Shown: positions 5,912 through 15,531, numbered from the stretch's first letter. The stretch: DNA of 64,000 bases from a virus (IMGVR_UViG_3300026484_000095:1-64000), one strand, 5' to 3'. Made by a program: numbers and translations. Notes: generated from the letters alone by a model not told the origin.

Positions 5912-7312
5912 ATGGCTTTAAATATCACAGTAATTGGTAACTCTTATTATAATGATGAGAAAGTAGATTGTTATTATCAAGTTCATTATTACCCTGCTAT
6001 GGTCTCCTCTCCTATATATGCAACAGAAGACCAAACATTTAGTTTCAATATAGGGGGAGCTGACCATCTAGGTAAAGATGGTGAATTTAAAAAAGACCAT
6101 ATCTGTTTAGTAAATCTTTGGTTAGGTGAATCTGATAAGAGTGAGATGACTAGCCAAACAGTATTGAGAATAAAGCACGATGGGGAGTCCCACTTATATG
6201 ATAGTGATATAAATCTTAAAAACATATTTGATACACAAGTTTCTTTGGAGCTGAACGAGGTTTATGAGTTAGGTGATAAAGTTGAACCTATAGTTAATAT
6301 AAACAGCACCTTTCAATGGTTATACAATGAAATCTATTTATATCAAAGACCTTCTTGGTATGGGTTTATTTTAAATCCAAACACTGGCACAGATGCTATG
6401 AGTATAAACTTCGATTATGAGTTAGGTTTAACATCTGACTATTTCTATATATACAAAGATATAGGGGTTAAAGAAGTTCTTTTAAAAGTTATTGATGGTA
6501 TGAATAGAGAATACTTAGATAGTAAATCTCTTGAAGTGAAGCATAAACAACCTATCATAGATATATCTTACTCCCCAAAAGCTCCTGATATAGATGACGA
6601 TATTGAAGTTAGTGTTAGTATTACATCTCAAACATCTTACTCTTATAATCTTTACATAGATGATTATTTGGTTTCAAATCACTCTAAATCTATTTCAACT
6701 AATATAGGAAAATTGCAGTTGGATAGTTATAGTATAAAAGTTGAGCTTACTTACAATGATGGCTTCCAAACAAAATTAGTAACTTCTACTCTCCCTATAT
6801 TTATGAGGAATATGCCACCTGAGGTATCAATAATAGAGGTAGAGAAAAATCCACCTATTTTAAGTTTAGGTTCAGATATAGTTAATAGAGATGACGATAT
6901 TGCTAGTATAGATTGGTATATCTATAAATTAGTAAAAGACAAAAGCTCAAATATAGTAACTAAGGTTCGTTTGGATAAAGTAAGCTCAAAAGATTTATAT
7001 TACAACTTTAATGAGTATGGCGATATTATTATAGAATTGGAGGTTATAGATATACACGGAGCTATTGGTAAGGCTATCTATAATTTACACATTGACTGTG
7101 CTTCTGTGGGTGCGGTATTCGTTCAGGATGTAGAATTTATACAAGAGGGAGTTATAGTACAAGACTTTTCTCAAAAGATTATAGTAAATAATTATGACTT
7201 TTCTGCTGAGTTAGTAGTCCCCAAGTTCAGAGGAGCGACAGTTTATAAGGAAGTATTTAAAGAGGTTATAAAAGATAGTGCATTTAATGTCTATAAAGTA
7301 GAGGAGATATAA
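5912..7312 (+). CDS. PKD/Ig-like repeat structural protein
   Basis: Repeated Ig/PKD-like segments (YKDIGVKEVLLKVIDG; NMPPEV; FNEYGDIIIELEVIDIHG). Confidence 0.5.
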   Translation: MALNITVIGNSYYNDEKVDCYYQVHYYPAMVSSPIYATEDQTFSFNIGGADHLGKDGEFKKDHICLVNLWLGESDKSEMTSQTVLRIKHDGESHLYDSDINLKNIFDTQVSLELNEVYELGDKVEPIVNINSTFQWLYNEIYLYQRPSWYGFILNPNTGTDAMSINFDYELGLTSDYFYIYKDIGVKEVLLKVIDGMNREYLDSKSLEVKHKQPIIDISYSPKAPDIDDDIEVSVSITSQTSYSYNLYIDDYLVSNHSKSISTNIGKLQLDSYSIKVELTYNDGFQTKLVTSTLPIFMRNMPPEVSIIEVEKNPPILSLGSDIVNRDDDIASIDWYIYKLVKDKSSNIVTKVRLDKVSSKDLYYNFNEYGDIIIELEVIDIHGAIGKAIYNLHIDCASVGAVFVQDVEFIQEGVIVQDFSQKIIVNNYDFSAELVVPKFRGATVYKEVFKEVIKDSAFNVYKVEEI

Positions 7313-7314
7313 CT

Positions 7315-7686
7315 ATGGCAGAAGTAATAAAAGTTACACAAGGTAATAGCACAGATATATACTTATACAGTTCAGATGATATTGGTATATTAGACCCTAA
7401 TGAATGGTCTGCTACATTTACAATCGGTAATCCAAAGGAAGAAGACTTATCTAAACAAGTTCTATTAAACGGTAATTTAGGGTTTAGTGAAGAGGGTGTA
7501 AAAAACCTACCTGCTAATTCGTTCTTAGTTTGGCAATTAAGCCCAACTGCAACAGCTAGACTTCCAATAGGCAAATATACAATGGTAATTGAGGCAGAAA
7601 GAACTGTAAATAATGAAGTTGTCTTTAAGAAAGAGATATTTATATATCAGGTAATAGTTTCAGCTAAGACCTTCGCAATAGCATAG
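7315..7686 (+). CDS. BppU-like baseplate/tail adaptor protein
   Basis: IKVTQGNS start and LSPTATARLPIGKYTMVIE pattern. Confidence 0.45.
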   Translation: MAEVIKVTQGNSTDIYLYSSDDIGILDPNEWSATFTIGNPKEEDLSKQVLLNGNLGFSEEGVKNLPANSFLVWQLSPTATARLPIGKYTMVIEAERTVNNEVVFKKEIFIYQVIVSAKTFAIA

Positions 7687-9666: not shown

Positions 9667-9723
9667 CGGCTTCATAACAGATTTTATACAAAATTTAATT
9701 ATATAATCTTATCATAGAGGTTT

Positions 9724-9763
9724 TTATAGCTATCCTTTAAATTTTAAAGAAAGGTAGCTATAA
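9724..9763 (+). promoter_or_regulatory. RBS-sequestering hairpin before 9763 gene
   Basis: TTATAGCTATCCTTT pairs with AAAGGTAGCTATAA, which contains the AAAGG RBS. Confidence 0.5.
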
Positions 9764-10275
9764 TGACTGATATGATAGATAAACAAATAGCAACTCTTGA
9801 TAAATTAAAGATGGATATTATATCTATCATTGAAGACTCAGGGAATGCTAAGGAACTTACAGATAGATTTATGTCTTTATCAAGAACAGTAGATGAAGAT
9901 GATTATGAGATTATTCAGACTCTAATTCTTATGCAAGATATATCTAACACTAATCACAAAAACTTCAAAAATGTAGCCATACAAACTCTAACAATCTTGA
10001 TAGATTCCAAGATTAGTAGTTATCGTGATATTAAATTATTGAACGAAAGAATTACAGTATTAGAAAAAGCACAAGGCACACAAGTAAAGATACCTATGTT
10101 AGGTAAAATATCTACTAAGGATTTAATGTACTTTATAATCGCTATGTTCATTCTTATATTTACAGCTTACTCTCTCAATCCACAAGCTACAGAAAGAACT
10201 GCTAAGTTCGTAGGTGGCAAGGTTACAAAGAAATTGAAAGAAGAACTAGATATAAGTATAAAGGATAACCAATGA
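9763..10275 (+). CDS. Coiled-coil protein with C-terminal transmembrane helix
   Basis: LMYFIIAMFILIFTAYSL hydrophobic segment; ATGA overlap with next gene. Confidence 0.6.
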   Translation: MTDMIDKQIATLDKLKMDIISIIEDSGNAKELTDRFMSLSRTVDEDDYEIIQTLILMQDISNTNHKNFKNVAIQTLTILIDSKISSYRDIKLLNERITVLEKAQGTQVKIPMLGKISTKDLMYFIIAMFILIFTAYSLNPQATERTAKFVGGKVTKKLKEELDISIKDNQ

Positions 10276-11093
10276 GTATTTTAGAAAGAATAAAAAATTT
10301 CCTTAAACTAACGGATAGAAATTCTAGAGAGAAAGAAAAATGCAAGTTTAACTCTGAGTGTGGGAATAAAAATTCTTCAAATTATGACCCTGATAAATGT
10401 CACTCTAATTTATCATCTTATAAAGATATATTAGATAGCATTAAAACAAAACCTAAGGAAGCTGATAAAGAGGAGCAACTAGTTCCCGATTTAGACCATA
10501 TAGAGCAAAGGGTCGATTGGTCTAAAAAGATTGTATTGATAATGGACGATGAGCCTTTAATCAATTATTTCATACAAGATGATTTAAGATACTTTGAATC
10601 AATAGCTAAGAAGATAGCAAAAGGTATTAATCTTAACTCATCTGATAAAACATTGTTGGCTTTAGCTGATGCTAATGAAGTTGGAGAAACATTGAGAAAT
10701 TTCACTGTTAATGATTACAGTATAATTTCGGTTACTGGTGATTACGCCGCTTTTTCTATACAAAGGTATATAGAGAAGATTAAAAGAGTAGACTATGCTG
10801 TTTTAGATATCTCTATCGGTGGCACTTTGGTTGTAAATGGTTCAAGAAAAAGATTAAGTGGTATTGATATTGCTATTACACTTAAAGAGAAAGTGAACCA
10901 CAAAGTCAATCTATTGATGTATACTGGGAATGATTTAGGTAAATATAGTCCTGAATCAATACAGTTTGAAGAGAATATCAAAGATGACTTGTTCTTGTAT
11001 TTAGTTAATAAGGACTCCCCTCTTAATGTTCGTAGAGTTAAGCTATTGCTATTTTTGATGAATAGACCTTTCTCTATGATTAATTATAATTAG
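10272..11093 (+). CDS. Response regulator, receiver domain only (with insertion and Cys-rich N-terminal extension)
   Basis: VLIMDDEP acidic pocket, AVLDISI phospho-Asp, SGIDIA, LMYTG, VNKD; no output domain. Confidence 0.8.
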   Translation: MSILERIKNFLKLTDRNSREKEKCKFNSECGNKNSSNYDPDKCHSNLSSYKDILDSIKTKPKEADKEEQLVPDLDHIEQRVDWSKKIVLIMDDEPLINYFIQDDLRYFESIAKKIAKGINLNSSDKTLLALADANEVGETLRNFTVNDYSIISVTGDYAAFSIQRYIEKIKRVDYAVLDISIGGTLVVNGSRKRLSGIDIAITLKEKVNHKVNLLMYTGNDLGKYSPESIQFEENIKDDLFLYLVNKDSPLNVRRVKLLLFLMNRPFSMINYN

Positions 11094-11105
11094 AGGAGTT
11101 TTGTT

Positions 11106-12506
11106 ATGCTTGAAGCTTTTTACTACGGGATGAAGAATAGACTACAAGGTCTGTTCTCCTCTATTTATTATGTTCAGAAAGAAGTTCTTACTTATCAAAA
11201 CAAAAAATTAATTATGAAAGTTATATCTGCAATAGCTATTATAGTACTCTTATCCAATCTTATATATTCTATATACTCTACAAATTCCCTTGTAGAAAAC
11301 AATAAACAGAACTTAATGGTTTCTATCAATGAGTTAATAACTTATGATGGTGAAGTGGATTTGACTTACATAGCAAATTTGTCTAAGGCTGATTTTATCA
11401 TTATTGAAAAGGGGGACACAACCTATAACATTTATCATAGAGAGGGTCAGTTACTGAAAAAATATAGAGATTCAGATAAGAATGATTATTACACTCCATT
11501 ATATACAGCAAACTATAAAGATTGGTATATATCTAACAATTTTAATTTGGTTATAAAGTTAACTAATTCTGATTTACAATATCATTCCAAATATAATGTA
11601 TTGTTGTTAAGCGGTTCTATACCATCTATCGTTATTTACAATTTCTTTTATACATTTTTATTAACTGTATTTTTCATTTTTCTTAGTTTAACTGCTATTG
11701 TATATGTAGCAAGTAAAGTTAGGATTTCAGAGCTGATAGCCACGGCAAGTAATGAAGCTATGCTACAAGTTAAGAATAGCCAAAAGTTCGTAGAGAGTAT
11801 GCACCACGAAGTAAAAACTCCCCTAGCTGTGTTAAATTCTACATTTAATAAAATGGAAGTATTAATAAATGACCTATGGGAGAACACTGAAAATTATGAT
11901 TATATCAAAGAGAGATTAGGGGAGGATAAGCAAATTATCGAGGATTTGACGGTAGCTGTGTCGTTCAATTTTGAGCTAATCTATAACATACTAGATAAAC
12001 AAAAGAATAATAGAGCTATAAGATTTTCTAACGGTAATTACAATCTATTTGACTTATTACAACACTCCTGTGAAAATTTGAGATGGGATACTAAAATAAA
12101 GTATTCGTATGATATAGACAATCGTTTTAAGCTGTTATCTAACAAAACCTTAGCTAATGAGGATTTTGTTAATATCTTTATTAATCATATTAAGAACTCA
12201 TTAGAAGCTAATGCAAATATGATTAAAATACACTTACAAGGTGTAAAAGATGATAAAGCTATTATTTTGTTAGCTGATAACGGTTCAGGAATACCTGATA
12301 GTGTAAAAGATATGATTTATCTTCCTAGCTTTTCAACCAAAAAACAATTAAAAGATAGCGATAATCAAGGTGTAGGAATGTACTTATGCCATTCTTTGTT
12401 AGAAGAAGCTAAAGGGTCTGAATCTGTTAAGTATAGCGATAGTCAAGGAACTGTATTTGAGATTATTCTCCCTATAACTGATTATATAGAAAAGGAGAAG
12501 CAATGA
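11106..12506 (+). CDS. Membrane sensor histidine kinase
   Basis: Two TM segments around a periplasmic region; H-box MHHEVKTPL, N-box NHIKNSLEA, G1 DNGSGIP, F-box FSTK, G2 GVGMYLC. Confidence 0.9.
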   Translation: MLEAFYYGMKNRLQGLFSSIYYVQKEVLTYQNKKLIMKVISAIAIIVLLSNLIYSIYSTNSLVENNKQNLMVSINELITYDGEVDLTYIANLSKADFIIIEKGDTTYNIYHREGQLLKKYRDSDKNDYYTPLYTANYKDWYISNNFNLVIKLTNSDLQYHSKYNVLLLSGSIPSIVIYNFFYTFLLTVFFIFLSLTAIVYVASKVRISELIATASNEAMLQVKNSQKFVESMHHEVKTPLAVLNSTFNKMEVLINDLWENTENYDYIKERLGEDKQIIEDLTVAVSFNFELIYNILDKQKNNRAIRFSNGNYNLFDLLQHSCENLRWDTKIKYSYDIDNRFKLLSNKTLANEDFVNIFINHIKNSLEANANMIKIHLQGVKDDKAIILLADNGSGIPDSVKDMIYLPSFSTKKQLKDSDNQGVGMYLCHSLLEEAKGSESVKYSDSQGTVFEIILPITDYIEKEKQ

Positions 12507-12766
12507 AATACATACTTATAATGCTAGGCTTGTTATCAACTATCAATGCAGATTGTTTATTGGTGTTTAGGAAATATCCTAACATTGAGTTAGAAACTAA
12601 ATCTCATAAATCTTGGGTAAGAGTTTTAAACAATCCAAATAGATTGAAATACTATGGTTTATCAATAGATAAAAACAAGGGCGATATTATCATAATGATA
12701 AAATGCTTAAAAAATAAAAGAATAAACTTACAATTAGGAGAGGGACACAATGAAAGTGATTTTTAG
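12503..12766 (+). CDS. Small secreted/periplasmic protein
   Basis: Sec-type signal MKYILIMLGLLSTINA; two Cys; ATGA overlap with kinase. Confidence 0.6.
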   Translation: MKYILIMLGLLSTINADCLLVFRKYPNIELETKSHKSWVRVLNNPNRLKYYGLSIDKNKGDIIIMIKCLKNKRINLQLGEGHNESDF

Positions 12767-13841
12767 TATAATGTTAATATGTATAACAACTTTATCAGCA
12801 AGGGATTTAGTAGCTGTTGATTTAGATGTAGCTAATTATTATTATACTTCAAAAGATGATAGTTACAACATACAAGACTATAAGGCACAAGTTACCTATG
12901 CAGAGGTATTTAAAAACAATTATAAAGTGGTTTCACAAGTGGAGGTATTAGCAAGGAGGAATGCTCACCTTAATCACGAAACATTCGATGGGAACTATAT
13001 TTATTTCAAAGCTCTTTATTTAGAGTATCTAATCAATAAGAACTATTCTTTTTATATTGGGAAAGTTCCTTATCTATATGATGAGCTAGATATATATAAC
13101 TATGGTGGTTCTAGTTCATCTAAAACAACTCTTGGAGAGGGCTTATTTTTAATTTCAGGTAATATACGAAATACAGTTGGTATTTCTTTTCATAAAGATA
13201 GGGCGAAGATAAACTTTGGTTATATAGCAAAGCTTGATAACTTCTTGGATGGTGCTTCTCCTTATCAAGATTTTAATATGCAATCTACATTTGATAAAGC
13301 AGATGGTCTAACTTTATATATTAAATGTAACCCTATTGAGAAGCATATATTTACCTATGACTCTTATTTAGTTAAAGCTCGTTTGAGTGATAAGAACACT
13401 GATATTTTAGCTTATAATGGGGCAATACAGTATTTATATGATGATACTGATTATTCAGGTTATAAGTTTATCAATGAGGTAGCTTACAGTTATAAGAACT
13501 CAGATAGTGATACACATACAACAACTAATGGTTATGCTTATAGAACAGCTATAATGAAACAGATTGACTATTTATATGAAACAGTCGTAGGTTTTGAGTA
13601 TATTAAGACTTCCAAAGATTTTGTATCTATAAAAACATCAGTAGTGAATAACCGTAACAATATGGTTTTCGGAGGTTCTAATTATAATATGTTCTCGACT
13701 TTCTCTTTTAGCAAAGATATATCTATGTCTTTTTGTTTTAGCTATCAGAGAGTAAATTATGTTAGACCTAGCTTAGAACAAGTTGTACCTTCAAATTTTT
13801 CAATTAAAACAATTCACACATCTATATCTTACCATTTCTAA
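12750..13841 (+). CDS. Outer-membrane beta-barrel/porin-like protein
   Basis: Signal peptide, Tyr-rich amphipathic strands, C-terminal SISYHF (terminal Phe, BAM-signal-like). Confidence 0.7.
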   Translation: MKVIFSIMLICITTLSARDLVAVDLDVANYYYTSKDDSYNIQDYKAQVTYAEVFKNNYKVVSQVEVLARRNAHLNHETFDGNYIYFKALYLEYLINKNYSFYIGKVPYLYDELDIYNYGGSSSSKTTLGEGLFLISGNIRNTVGISFHKDRAKINFGYIAKLDNFLDGASPYQDFNMQSTFDKADGLTLYIKCNPIEKHIFTYDSYLVKARLSDKNTDILAYNGAIQYLYDDTDYSGYKFINEVAYSYKNSDSDTHTTTNGYAYRTAIMKQIDYLYETVVGFEYIKTSKDFVSIKTSVVNNRNNMVFGGSNYNMFSTFSFSKDISMSFCFSYQRVNYVRPSLEQVVPSNFSIKTIHTSISYHF

Positions 13842-13851
13842 AACAAGTATT

Positions 13852-13889
13852 AACCTCCTATAATCGTTACAAAATTTTTATGGGAGGTT
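13852..13889 (+). promoter_or_regulatory. Hairpin sequestering holin RBS, with TATAAT in its 5' arm
   Basis: AACCTCCTATAA / TTATGGGAGGTT 12-bp stem (one G:U) covers GGGAGG; TATAAT at 13859-13864. Confidence 0.6.
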
Positions 13890-13893
13890 CGTA

Positions 13894-14208
13894 ATGGACG
13901 AAAAACAAATAGAAGAGAAAATACATCAGGCTACGGATTGGTGGGCAGAGCATAATCTTGGAACAAGAGTTAGTTTAATAACTTTCACATTGTTATTGAT
14001 AGTGGTTATCCTTTACCCAATGTTAGCTCCTGCCAAAGAAATCGTAGTCAAAGGTGTTCCACACTTAGTAGTTAAAGATATTCCTCACTATGATAAAATC
14101 GTAGGTATTGTATCTGATTTAGCTTTTTGGTCGTTTGCAGTTGTAACAGTAGGGGCGAACACTTTATTAAAGTTAGCAGACGCTTGGATAAAAGTGAAAG
14201 GTAAGTAA
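13894..14208 (+). CDS. Putative holin
   Basis: 104 aa, two TM helices, basic C-terminus, first gene of spanin/endolysin block. Confidence 0.6.
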   Translation: MDEKQIEEKIHQATDWWAEHNLGTRVSLITFTLLLIVVILYPMLAPAKEIVVKGVPHLVVKDIPHYDKIVGIVSDLAFWSFAVVTVGANTLLKLADAWIKVKGK

Positions 14209-14537
14209 TGGTTATATTTAACAGTATTAAAACTGTCGGTACTATATTAGTTAGCTTCTTAGCTTTATTCGGTTTTTGGAAATACAAAAACAAAGAAGAA
14301 GAAGTAACTGAACTTAAATCTTATGCAGAGCAAAAAGATAAAGAGGTTCAAGCTATGAAGCAAACTGTCGAAGTTCAAGAGAGAGTGTACCAACAAGAAG
14401 TATCAAATTTTGAGATGGAAAAAGAGGTTCAGAGTGAGTCTGCAAAGACTGGTAAAGAGAACATAAAGAGAAAGAATGAAATGCACTTAACAGTAGATAA
14501 TGCTGTAGAGGGTGAAGAGTTCGACTTAAAGGCTTAA
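14208..14537 (+). CDS. Putative inner-membrane spanin (Rz-like)
   Basis: N-terminal TM then coiled coil; directly before a lipoprotein. Confidence 0.7.
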   Translation: MVIFNSIKTVGTILVSFLALFGFWKYKNKEEEVTELKSYAEQKDKEVQAMKQTVEVQERVYQQEVSNFEMEKEVQSESAKTGKENIKRKNEMHLTVDNAVEGEEFDLKA

Positions 14538-14539
14538 AA

Positions 14540-14839
14540 ATGAAGTTTATACAATTATCTATCATAGGTCTATCTTCTTTGTTACTGGGTGGTTGTATAT
14601 CAACAGAGTATAAAACAATCGAAGTGCCAAAGTATATTGAGAGACCTATGCCTGAGTTAAAAGTTTATGAGGTTAATAGTTCTTACACATTTACTAGGCT
14701 TAAAAAAGAGAACGGTTATATTAAGGTTCCTATTAAGCAATTCAAAGAGTATGTAGGAATTAAAATGGACTTGGAAGCGAGTTTAGAGAAAGCTAATAAT
14801 CAAGTTCGTATTTACAACAAAAAACGAACAAAAAAATAA
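14540..14839 (+). CDS. Putative outer-membrane spanin lipoprotein (Rz1-like)
   Basis: Lipobox LLLGGC, Pro-containing segment, helical C-terminus. Confidence 0.7.
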   Translation: MKFIQLSIIGLSSLLLGGCISTEYKTIEVPKYIERPMPELKVYEVNSSYTFTRLKKENGYIKVPIKQFKEYVGIKMDLEASLEKANNQVRIYNKKRTKK

Positions 14840-14851
14840 CGGAGAAATGAA

Positions 14852-15316
14852 ATGTTTGATTATGGAACACGAAGTCAAGATAGATTGGAAACTTGTCATA
14901 AAGATATACAGCTAATCTTTAATGAAGCGATTAAATTCTATGATATATCTATCTTAGAGGGTATTCGCTCAGATGAAACTCAGCTAGAGTATTATGAGAC
15001 GGGTAGAAGTCAGTTAGATGGTAAGATTAAGAAGTCTAAACATCAAGGTAAAGTAGACGAAGATGGTAACATAGTTTCTTATGCTATTGACTGTATGCCT
15101 TACAAGAAAGGCACTAATGCCTTTAGTGGTAAAGAGGAAGATAAATATCGTTTCTACTTCTTAGCAGGTTTGATTTATAGTATAACTGAAAGGCTGTATA
15201 ATAAGGGTAAAATAACCCACAAAATACGATGGGGCGGTGATTGGGCTATGGATATGGTTTATCACCCTGATAGAGAGTTCACTGATTTACCACATTTTGA
15301 GTTAGTTGAAGCATAA
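14852..15316 (+). CDS. Endolysin, M15 L-alanyl-D-glutamate peptidase family
   Basis: GIRS...Q, SKH, AID, RWGGDW, DLPHFE motifs. Confidence 0.9.
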   Translation: MFDYGTRSQDRLETCHKDIQLIFNEAIKFYDISILEGIRSDETQLEYYETGRSQLDGKIKKSKHQGKVDEDGNIVSYAIDCMPYKKGTNAFSGKEEDKYRFYFLAGLIYSITERLYNKGKITHKIRWGGDWAMDMVYHPDREFTDLPHFELVEA

Positions 15317-15319
15317 TAG

Positions 15320-15531
15320 ATGGTGGATTTTCTGATACTAGCTTTAATACTACTAGTTATTATATTTTTCATAATTTTAGCTTTTATAACAAAAGGAGCT
15401 AAAACTTGTGGAAATTGTGGAGCTTCAATGTATTCACCTTTAATAGGTGGGAAGAAGCGAGATGGCTTTACAGATTACACATTTATAAATGTGTAAATTG
15501 TTCTGAAATAGTGGAAGAAATTTGTAAATAA
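15320..15531 (+). pseudogene. Membrane-anchored zinc-ribbon protein, frameshifted
   Basis: TM + CGNC in one frame; second CVNC in the -1 frame. Confidence 0.4.

Follow-up and report, generated by a model that had tools for sequence, protein, structure and literature searches.

Positions 9,724 to 15,316 of the virus stretch IMGVR_UViG_3300026484_000095:1-64000 very probably encode a functional, conserved signalling cassette that is restricted to phages and consists of three genes, for a membrane protein, an atypical stand-alone receiver, and a sensor histidine kinase. We refer to the whole stretch analysed as the window; its 64,000 nucleotides open an IMG/VR virus record of 109,819 bp, rated complete by CheckV. 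An earlier reading of the same DNA, here called the original prediction, had proposed a sensing module of five genes, and it is the first three of these that are conserved as a unit; a small secreted protein and an outer-membrane beta-barrel extend the cassette in the sublineage of this phage and are accessory rather than core. An open reading frame (ORF) listing of the window recovered all nine ORFs that had been predicted, in place and with the junctions described for them; the interpretation that accompanied them is supported in part. The features of the cassette are as follows.

9667 to 9762, + strand: intergenic region 5' of the cassette, with a promoter-like TTTAAA-17-TATAAT at 9736-9764 (consensus match)
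9763 to 10275, + strand: membrane protein of 170 aa, first gene of the trio, with homologues immediately 5' of the receiver in 18 of the 19 records
10272 to 11093, + strand: stand-alone receiver of 273 aa, called from its fold and catalytic residues, with D179 as predicted phospho-acceptor
11106 to 12506, + strand: sensor histidine kinase of 466 aa, matching HATPase_c (E 2.7e-12), phrog_857, and phrog_10912
12503 to 12766, + strand: small Sec-exported periplasmic protein of 87 aa, with a signal peptide and homologues 3' of the kinase gene in eight records
12750 to 13841, + strand: porin-like outer-membrane beta-barrel of 363 aa, with a signal peptide and the C-terminus SISYHF, placed with the ESM Atlas

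The genes are tightly packed. Four-nucleotide ATGA overlaps join the membrane-protein gene to the receiver gene and the kinase gene to the secreted-protein gene, the receiver and kinase genes lie 12 nt apart, the secreted-protein and barrel genes overlap by 17 nt, and a gap of 52 nt separates the barrel from a putative holin. Promoter-like sites of this kind are no more numerous in the region than the shuffled expectation.

A divergent stand-alone receiver

The receiver-only response regulator of the original prediction stands as far as the receiver fold and the D-D-D-T-K residues are concerned; a Pfam receiver match is what it lacks, with Response_reg (PF00072) giving no match at E ≤ 1 (protein) or E ≤ 0.1 (DNA). 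The catalytic set of receiver domains comprises an acidic pair, a phospho-acceptor Asp, a Thr or Ser, and a Lys. An exhaustive HMMER search returned 94 relatives of 190-290 aa, and in an alignment of 41 of them D92, D93, D179, and K247 are nearly invariant, with Thr or Ser at position 218. When phage records are compared, D92, D93, D179, and the Thr/Ser at 218 are present in 17 of 17 and K247 in 15. The family profile aligns in register, though weakly, with the receivers of CheY, PhoP, Spo0F, and NtrC, and five of the 41 aligned family members match Response_reg weakly (best E 2e-4). An AlphaFold model computed from the alignment has a pLDDT of 88.6 and a pTM of 0.78, and a Foldseek search with this model gave 55 matches at E ≤ 1e-3. 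All of the top ones are receiver domains, namely those of DesR, RcsB, ArcA, Spo0A, and CheY, with TM-scores on the target of 0.57-0.73. Because the catalytic residues, the in-register profile matches, and the modelled fold agree, we assign 10272-11093 as a divergent stand-alone receiver, predicted to have no output domain. The same DNA-level search with Response_reg (E ≤ 0.1) found no canonical receiver elsewhere in the phage.

Three features are additional to the basic fold: some 85 N-terminal residues that are poorly conserved, roughly 40 aa inserted between beta1 and beta3, and a further hairpin beyond the acceptor Asp. Residues 1-85 (window 10272-10530) contain a C-x5-C-x12-CH pattern in a part of the model where confidence is low (pLDDT 47-63). 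The closest relative, P0044, is also Cys-rich in this extension, and P0042 is not (P-numbers denote protein relatives; L-numbers, used below, denote phage records or loci that carry the kinase family). The contig that encodes P0042, a receiver, has a length of 142,226 bp, as does that of the kinase P0003.

The sensor histidine kinase

The kinase gene is the sole HATPase_c gene of the phage record. Its product has a first transmembrane (TM) helix at about residues 38-60, a periplasmic domain at about 61-168, a second TM helix at about 170-200, a DHp domain with H234, and a CA domain. HATPase_c (PF02518) scores 47.5 bits against a gathering cut-off of 26.4 and is also confirmed by DNA-level search. 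HisKA (PF00512) reaches 14.2 bits, below its cut-off of 26.9, with the H-box helix alone matching, and the DHp domain appears to be divergent. The boxes read MHHEVKTPL (H), NHIKNSLEAN (N), DNGSGI (G1), and GVGMYL (G2); the H, N, G1, F, and G2 boxes are kept in the relatives of the kinase, and H234, E235, N360, N364, G422, and G424 show no variation across the 17 records that were compared. The call of a two-TM kinase with intact boxes is therefore borne out. Sensor domains measure about 110 aa in most records and are minimal in L006 and L009, where the periplasmic loop is all but missing (the TM helices start at residues 5 and 50).

A Cys-rich insertion, for example CKMECASCLAFKKGTGC, follows the H-box helix in the DHp domain of the kinases L002:8560-9915, P0008, P0012, and P0019. 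The window's kinase does not have this insertion, which in the others could form a metal or redox site in the cytoplasm.

Conservation of the trio in large phages

Relatives 47-50% identical to the kinase occur in metagenomes (P0002-P0007). A wider kinase-family profile located 16 IMG/VR loci and a second profile a further 3, giving 19 phage records besides the window. The contigs span 10-273 kb, six of them being at least 94% complete, and their phage nature is evident from endolysins, holins, and structural proteins, with multisubunit RNA polymerase genes in two. By ORF calling and hidden Markov model searches, the atypical receiver gene lies directly 5' of the kinase gene in all 19 records that have upstream DNA (18 plus the window), and the membrane-protein gene lies directly 5' of the receiver gene in 18 of these. 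Pairwise identities of the trio proteins co-vary (r = 0.70-0.74 over 120 pairs). Their means are 18-28%, and the retention of catalytic residues in the receiver and kinase at 26-28% identity indicates purifying selection on phosphotransfer chemistry. One record has an additional gene between receiver and kinase, L019:8026-8637, for a 203-aa protein with TM helices at both ends and no family match.

In the cellular genomes scanned the family is nearly absent. The kinase profile was run against 185,579 prokaryote species, each represented by a single genome, and the best cellular match was L020 (CAYFOE010000024.1, 1402 bp), a 1.4-kb contig binned into a Woesearchaeota metagenome-assembled genome (32% identity, E 3e-17). 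This contig is probably a mis-binned phage fragment. All other cellular matches in these species genomes were generic kinases, at most 27% identical over comparable spans and with E ≥ 2e-9. Such a distribution bears on the proposal that the region is a recently captured host two-component system without a phage role, a passive moron. Phages do acquire host signalling genes, phiCDHM1 with its agrB, agrC, and agrD being an example (PMC3901668). Passive capture is nonetheless not supported here, because the species-genome scan gave only generic kinases: the homologues, which the original prediction had allowed might sit mainly on host chromosomes, are in phage records, and the L020 contig is the only cellular match closer than the generic kinases of the large assemblies. 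In addition, the family spans 19 or more diverse phage records, in which gene order and catalytic residues are conserved, and the G+C content of the region (0.29-0.30) is close to that of the rest of the window (0.30-0.35). We regard passive capture as largely refuted and its probability as very small.

Among GenBank phages (INPHARED, 50,697 records), the receiver and three family kinases had no relatives beyond generic kinase matches, and single-protein and first-alignment scans of IMG/VR and JGI metagenome contigs gave no relatives. A literature search of incomplete coverage found no description of a phage-specific kinase/receiver family. The kinase/receiver family is an old lineage, known to date from large uncultured phages only.

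The secreted protein and the barrel

The secreted-protein gene follows the kinase gene in eight records (the window, L002, L005, L007, L008, L015, L070, and L072). The original prediction had drawn attention to a Cys pair in this protein and had suggested that it could serve as the signal. Cys18 and Cys68 are indeed present in the 12503 protein, but the pair is unconserved in its family, and the suggested role as a signal is not supported; the family is held together by a conserved core, K[ST]xxGWxR[VY] (KSHKSWVRV in the window), rather than by a variable peptide. The barrel fared better as an outer-membrane protein, having a signal peptide, a C-terminal Phe, and a porin-like predicted structure. 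The ESM Atlas puts it among porins (feature score 0.98, TM-score 0.63-0.79, model pTM 0.75), with Porin_4, Porin_5, and DUF3373 clusters as structural neighbours; it has no Pfam match and no relatives in a word-indexed sequence search. Barrels of 363-420 aa with a terminal aromatic residue follow the secreted protein in seven records, and they are barely alignable with one another; the barrel evolves fast. In L008 (10451-11584) the barrel is split into two ORFs of 129 and 244 aa, which may reflect a frameshift or a decaying gene. In L007 (10600-11300) the barrel's slot after the small secreted-protein gene is occupied by an AT-rich stretch with tandem repeats of about 95 bp.

The barrel, the secreted protein, and the sensor domain of the kinase diverge far faster than the cytoplasmic parts. 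When the regions preceding the H-box are compared, six of the eight records with a secreted protein have mutually homologous sensor regions, and none of these matches a record without the secreted protein. This likeness is what a jointly inherited periplasmic sub-module would show, although common descent could account for it by itself. One could take these observations further and propose that the barrel and secreted protein are effectors of surface remodelling or superinfection exclusion, altering the permeability of the outer membrane or blocking receptors, and that the kinase and receiver only tune them. Phage-borne outer-membrane proteins used for exclusion are known, such as the Lc porin of phage PA-2, and both the rapid divergence of the periplasmic and surface parts and the way in which sensor regions track the presence of the secreted protein would suit such a role. 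However, the pair is missing from 11-12 of the 19 cassettes and so cannot be the core function, and a receiver without a DNA-binding domain has no obvious way to regulate either protein. We therefore consider surface remodelling improbable.

The membrane protein and a proposed phosphorelay

In the AlphaFold model of the 9763 protein (pLDDT 76), residues 1-105 form a four-helix bundle, which a linker joins to a TM helix (118-138) followed by a C-terminal helix; the N-terminal bundle is predicted to be cytoplasmic. Its counterparts in other records are 147-207 aa long and have an N-terminal helical domain followed by one C-terminal TM helix. Chained phmmer matches unite them into one family, except for the L013/L018 pair, which belongs by architecture and position only. 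Structural matches of the 9763 protein are generic four-helix bundles (Z ≤ 8.6), below the noise level for helical proteins. A complex prediction of receiver residues 80-273 with the membrane-protein bundle (1-118) returned a score of 0.00, which gives no verdict either way.

Phosphotransfer, the identity of the cue, the target of the receiver, and any effect on lysis are points that we infer from the genes and their arrangement. We propose that the kinase would insert into the host inner membrane during infection, where it would read a periplasmic or membrane cue, autophosphorylate at H234, and pass the phosphoryl group to D179 of the receiver. As it has no output domain, the receiver must act through protein contact, and this would most plausibly be with the co-encoded membrane protein. 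The latter is the parsimonious target because it is always co-encoded and its gene shares an ATGA overlap with that of the receiver. Further downstream, the effect would most likely fall on holin-dependent lysis timing, as a delay or as a trigger. Taken as a whole, this reading of the trio as a phage phosphorelay with lysis timing as its output is one that we hold tentatively, at somewhat under an even chance.

The membrane protein could also stand at the input side of the system, as an accessory regulator of the kinase in the manner of LiaF, which would make the trio a three-component envelope-stress sensor; the receiver would then have its target elsewhere, and an output in lysis or in host takeover would be equally compatible with this wiring. 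LiaF acts with LiaS, and PhoQ and EnvZ have small membrane regulators. Intramembrane-sensing kinases, which have a minimal periplasmic loop, rely on accessory membrane proteins, and the almost loopless kinases of L006 and L009 are typical of this class. The membrane protein also co-varies with the kinase (r = 0.73) about as it does with the receiver (r = 0.74). On the other hand, it has no sequence or fold likeness to LiaF or other known accessory proteins, and its gene has the ATGA overlap with the receiver gene, not with the kinase gene. An input role is in our view possible but rather unlikely.

Lysis genes beside the cassette

Downstream of the barrel the window encodes a set of lysis genes, the first of which is preceded by a predicted RNA hairpin.

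13853 to 13888, + strand: RNA hairpin with an 11-bp stem, pairing the holin Shine-Dalgarno GGGAGG (13882-13887) and with TATAAT (13859-13864) in its 5' arm
13894 to 14208, + strand: putative holin of 104 aa with two TM helices, called from its position before the spanins and its L002 homologue
14208 to 14537, + strand: i-spanin with an N-terminal TM helix and coiled coil (weak match to Rz-like phrog_214, 3.3e-4; L002 homologue)
14540 to 14839, + strand: o-spanin lipoprotein with lipobox LLGGC (weak match to Rz-like phrog_812, 4.7e-4)
14852 to 15316, + strand: endolysin, an M15-type peptidase (phrog_465, E 1.4e-26; weak Peptidase_M15_4)

The putative holin has no Pfam or PHROG match and was called from its two TM helices, its position, and its homologue, the gene before the spanins in L002, to which it is 67% identical. 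A holin-based scan found the L002 contig again and no further one. Directly after the endolysin, at 15320-15496 of the window, lies an ORF of 58 aa, whose product has a TM helix at its N-terminus and a CGNC motif and may be a further member of the lysis cassette.

The linkage to a lysis neighbourhood that had been predicted is real but not universal: confirmed lysis genes adjoin the cassette in five of 19 records, in three arrangements. In the first, the window has the cassette, 52 nt, and then holin, spanins, and endolysin, and L002 has holin and spanins followed by the cassette, with the endolysin 6 kb upstream. The cassettes of these two phages thus lie on opposite sides of the holin, and their proteins are 30-35% identical where the holins are 67% identical. 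In the second, L006 and L009, only 13-31 nt separate the end of a three-TM holin of phrog_3427/PF11351 from the membrane-protein gene that follows, and a phrog_315 endolysin lies alongside on the opposite strand. In the third, L019, a phrog_465 endolysin is accompanied by a TM protein of 84 aa, with 4 nt between the end of its gene and the membrane-protein gene. The holins of the first two arrangements are unrelated. In another record, L072, the holin/endolysin slot before the cassette (6428-7492) is taken by a DUF5675 protein and a phrog_6637 protein of 205 aa with three TM helices, which hints that DUF5675 may be lysis-related; as neither family has an assigned function, we did not count the two as a lysis pair. 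Phage_lysozyme (PF00959) was not found in five cassette contigs and phrog_465 is absent from nine of the ten cassette contigs searched, so that for most fragmentary contigs these searches located no endolysin.

Were cassettes placed at random among 150-350 genes, we would roughly expect contact with lysis genes in a few percent of lineages. About three independent juxtapositions in roughly ten lineages therefore look enriched, although the five lysis-adjacent records represent only these approximately three lineages and the estimate is rough and not a formal test. We conclude that the link to lysis is recurrent, not obligatory, and that control of lysis timing by the cassette is a fair candidate function, if one to which we would give a little less than an even chance.

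Several observations weigh against such control. No lysis neighbour is confirmed for 14 of the 19 cassettes. Endolysin and cassette are 112 kb apart in L017 and about 17 kb apart in L010 and L018; the cassettes of L013 and L018 sit between genes for RNA polymerase beta-type subunits, and others stand beside exonuclease, helicase, ATPase, and tail or structural genes. The membrane protein through which the receiver would act has no Pfam, PHROG, or ESM Atlas relative and no specific fold match, no residue is invariant across its family, and it has no similarity to known antiholins. In the window itself, the hairpin before the holin (-17.7 kcal/mol, z = -3.7, with none of 200 shuffles as stable on folding) buries the holin ribosome-binding site and carries TATAAT, which argues against simple co-translation of the holin from the cassette transcript. 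As modelled, a holin message reading through from the cassette would have its ribosome-binding site blocked, and a transcript starting inside the hairpin would have it open, which suggests that the window's holin may be expressed separately from the cassette. The hairpin is absent before the L002 holin. Searches of the five cassette proteins against PHROG and Pfam gave no match to RI, RIII, another antiholin, or any lysis category.

The cassettes without a confirmed lysis neighbour would suit an output in host takeover that is unrelated to lysis. The cassette would then sense the state of the envelope or environment, with the receiver draining phosphate from host kinases or acting on a host or phage target, for instance RNA polymerase, the flagellar motor, or a cyclic-nucleotide enzyme, and with lysis adjacency being a matter of genome organisation in which membrane-protein or late genes are grouped. 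The cassettes that lie by RNA polymerase or replication genes are in keeping with this proposal, and the stand-alone receivers CheY, DivK, and CpdR have diverse targets. This phage also has HD-GYP and GGDEF genes, and GGDEF genes are found in three of 11 cassette phages examined. Yet the sole universally co-encoded candidate partner is a membrane protein and not a soluble enzyme, GGDEF is absent from four of six near-complete cassette phages, and close operon-type junctions with a holin are seen repeatedly, in three arrangements unrelated to one another. Host takeover of this kind seems to us unlikely on balance, although far from negligible. GGDEF was also considered as an obligate partner of the receiver and rejected, given its presence in three of the 11 phages. 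Short GGDEF ORFs of 173 and 187 aa, at G011:C1:94040-94309 and G001:C1:39582-39860 in the contigs of L002 and L010, resemble the minimal cyclase of this phage at 44812-45282.

A more detailed form of the proposed phosphorelay would be one that reads an envelope or periplasmic cue and gates holin triggering through the phosphorylated receiver acting on the membrane-anchored four-helix bundle, a kinase-driven circuit for lysis timing or lysis inhibition that is distinct in mechanism from T4 RI, arbitrium, and quorum-sensing receptors, with one sublineage adding its own outer-membrane channel and periplasmic co-factor. In this detailed version we consider it a doubtful possibility.

The phage and its source

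A sequencing-run search places the stretch in one DNA run from a hydrothermal-vent metagenome, which is probably its source, and listed no RNA runs that carry it. The host is probably a member of Campylobacterota or Aquificota, as we would guess from the G+C content and the porin look-alikes. Nearly all long ORFs of the window are on the + strand, its G+C content is 0.29-0.35, and no tRNA genes were found in it. PHROG matches in the window include a fibritin-like tail protein, several helicases, a DnaB-like helicase, and a DNA polymerase. The original prediction took the phage to be lytic; for this uncultured phage the label is a putative one, drawn from a search for a tyrosine integrase that found none. 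A kinase identical to that of the window (P0001) is encoded on a 139,849-bp contig, which exceeds the length of the 109,819-bp record although the latter is rated 100% complete. It may be that the record falls short of the true genome or that the longer assembly is concatenated.

Comparison with known signalling and lysis-control systems

Bacteria sense their surroundings mainly through two-component systems, which are generally regarded as cellular genes that phages manipulate or occasionally borrow. In the present case a complete pair of kinase and receiver, together with a third, fixed membrane component, makes up a phage lineage of its own in at least 19 large phage records. Some phages, by implication, monitor the envelope or environment for themselves while infecting. 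Should lysis timing indeed be the output, this would be a new class of lysis control. With three to five genes, the system is also compact and experimentally tractable for asking what a virulent phage needs to sense.

The phage trio resembles classical two-component systems such as CheA/CheY, Spo0F, and DivJ/PleC-DivK in its H, N, G1, and G2 boxes, its D-D-D-T/S-K residues, its (beta-alpha)5 fold, and an output through protein contact. It differs from them in that the receiver misses Response_reg and the kinase misses the HisKA threshold, in the beta1-beta3 insertion and the N-terminal extension, in its absence from the cellular genomes scanned, and in the gene for a membrane-anchored four-helix bundle that is attached in 18 of 19 records. 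LiaFSR likewise co-encodes a membrane accessory protein, a kinase, and a regulator, and some of the phage kinases have minimal periplasmic loops. However, the phage membrane protein has no LiaF homology and no Pfam family, the phage regulator is without a DNA-binding domain, and the gene order is accessory, regulator, kinase.

Among phage systems, T4 lysis inhibition (T, RI, and RIII) is also based at the inner membrane and periplasm, and the cassette, which is near lysis genes in some phages, could similarly tune holin timing to an external cue. We found no sequence relationship between the two, and T4 relies on direct binding of periplasmic domains with no phosphorelay, whereas a role in lysis is, for the cassette, an inferred one. 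Other phages are known to encode sensing genes. phiCDHM1 has agrB/C/D, including the histidine kinase AgrC, with no response regulator, and its genes are recognisably host-derived (PMC3901668), and VqmA of VP882 and the arbitrium receptor AimR are one-component DNA-binding receptors of temperate phages (PMC7790227). The present system shares with these the presence of sensing genes on a phage, and differs in being a complete kinase-receiver pair, in a lineage so far found only in phages, and in large phages. Finally, the cREC proteins of jumbo phages are reported never to be linked to histidine kinases and to be tied to NAD+/ADP-ribose systems (PMC7824862). Like cREC, the family described here is a divergent receiver fold in large phages; unlike cREC, it stands next to a kinase in every record examined.

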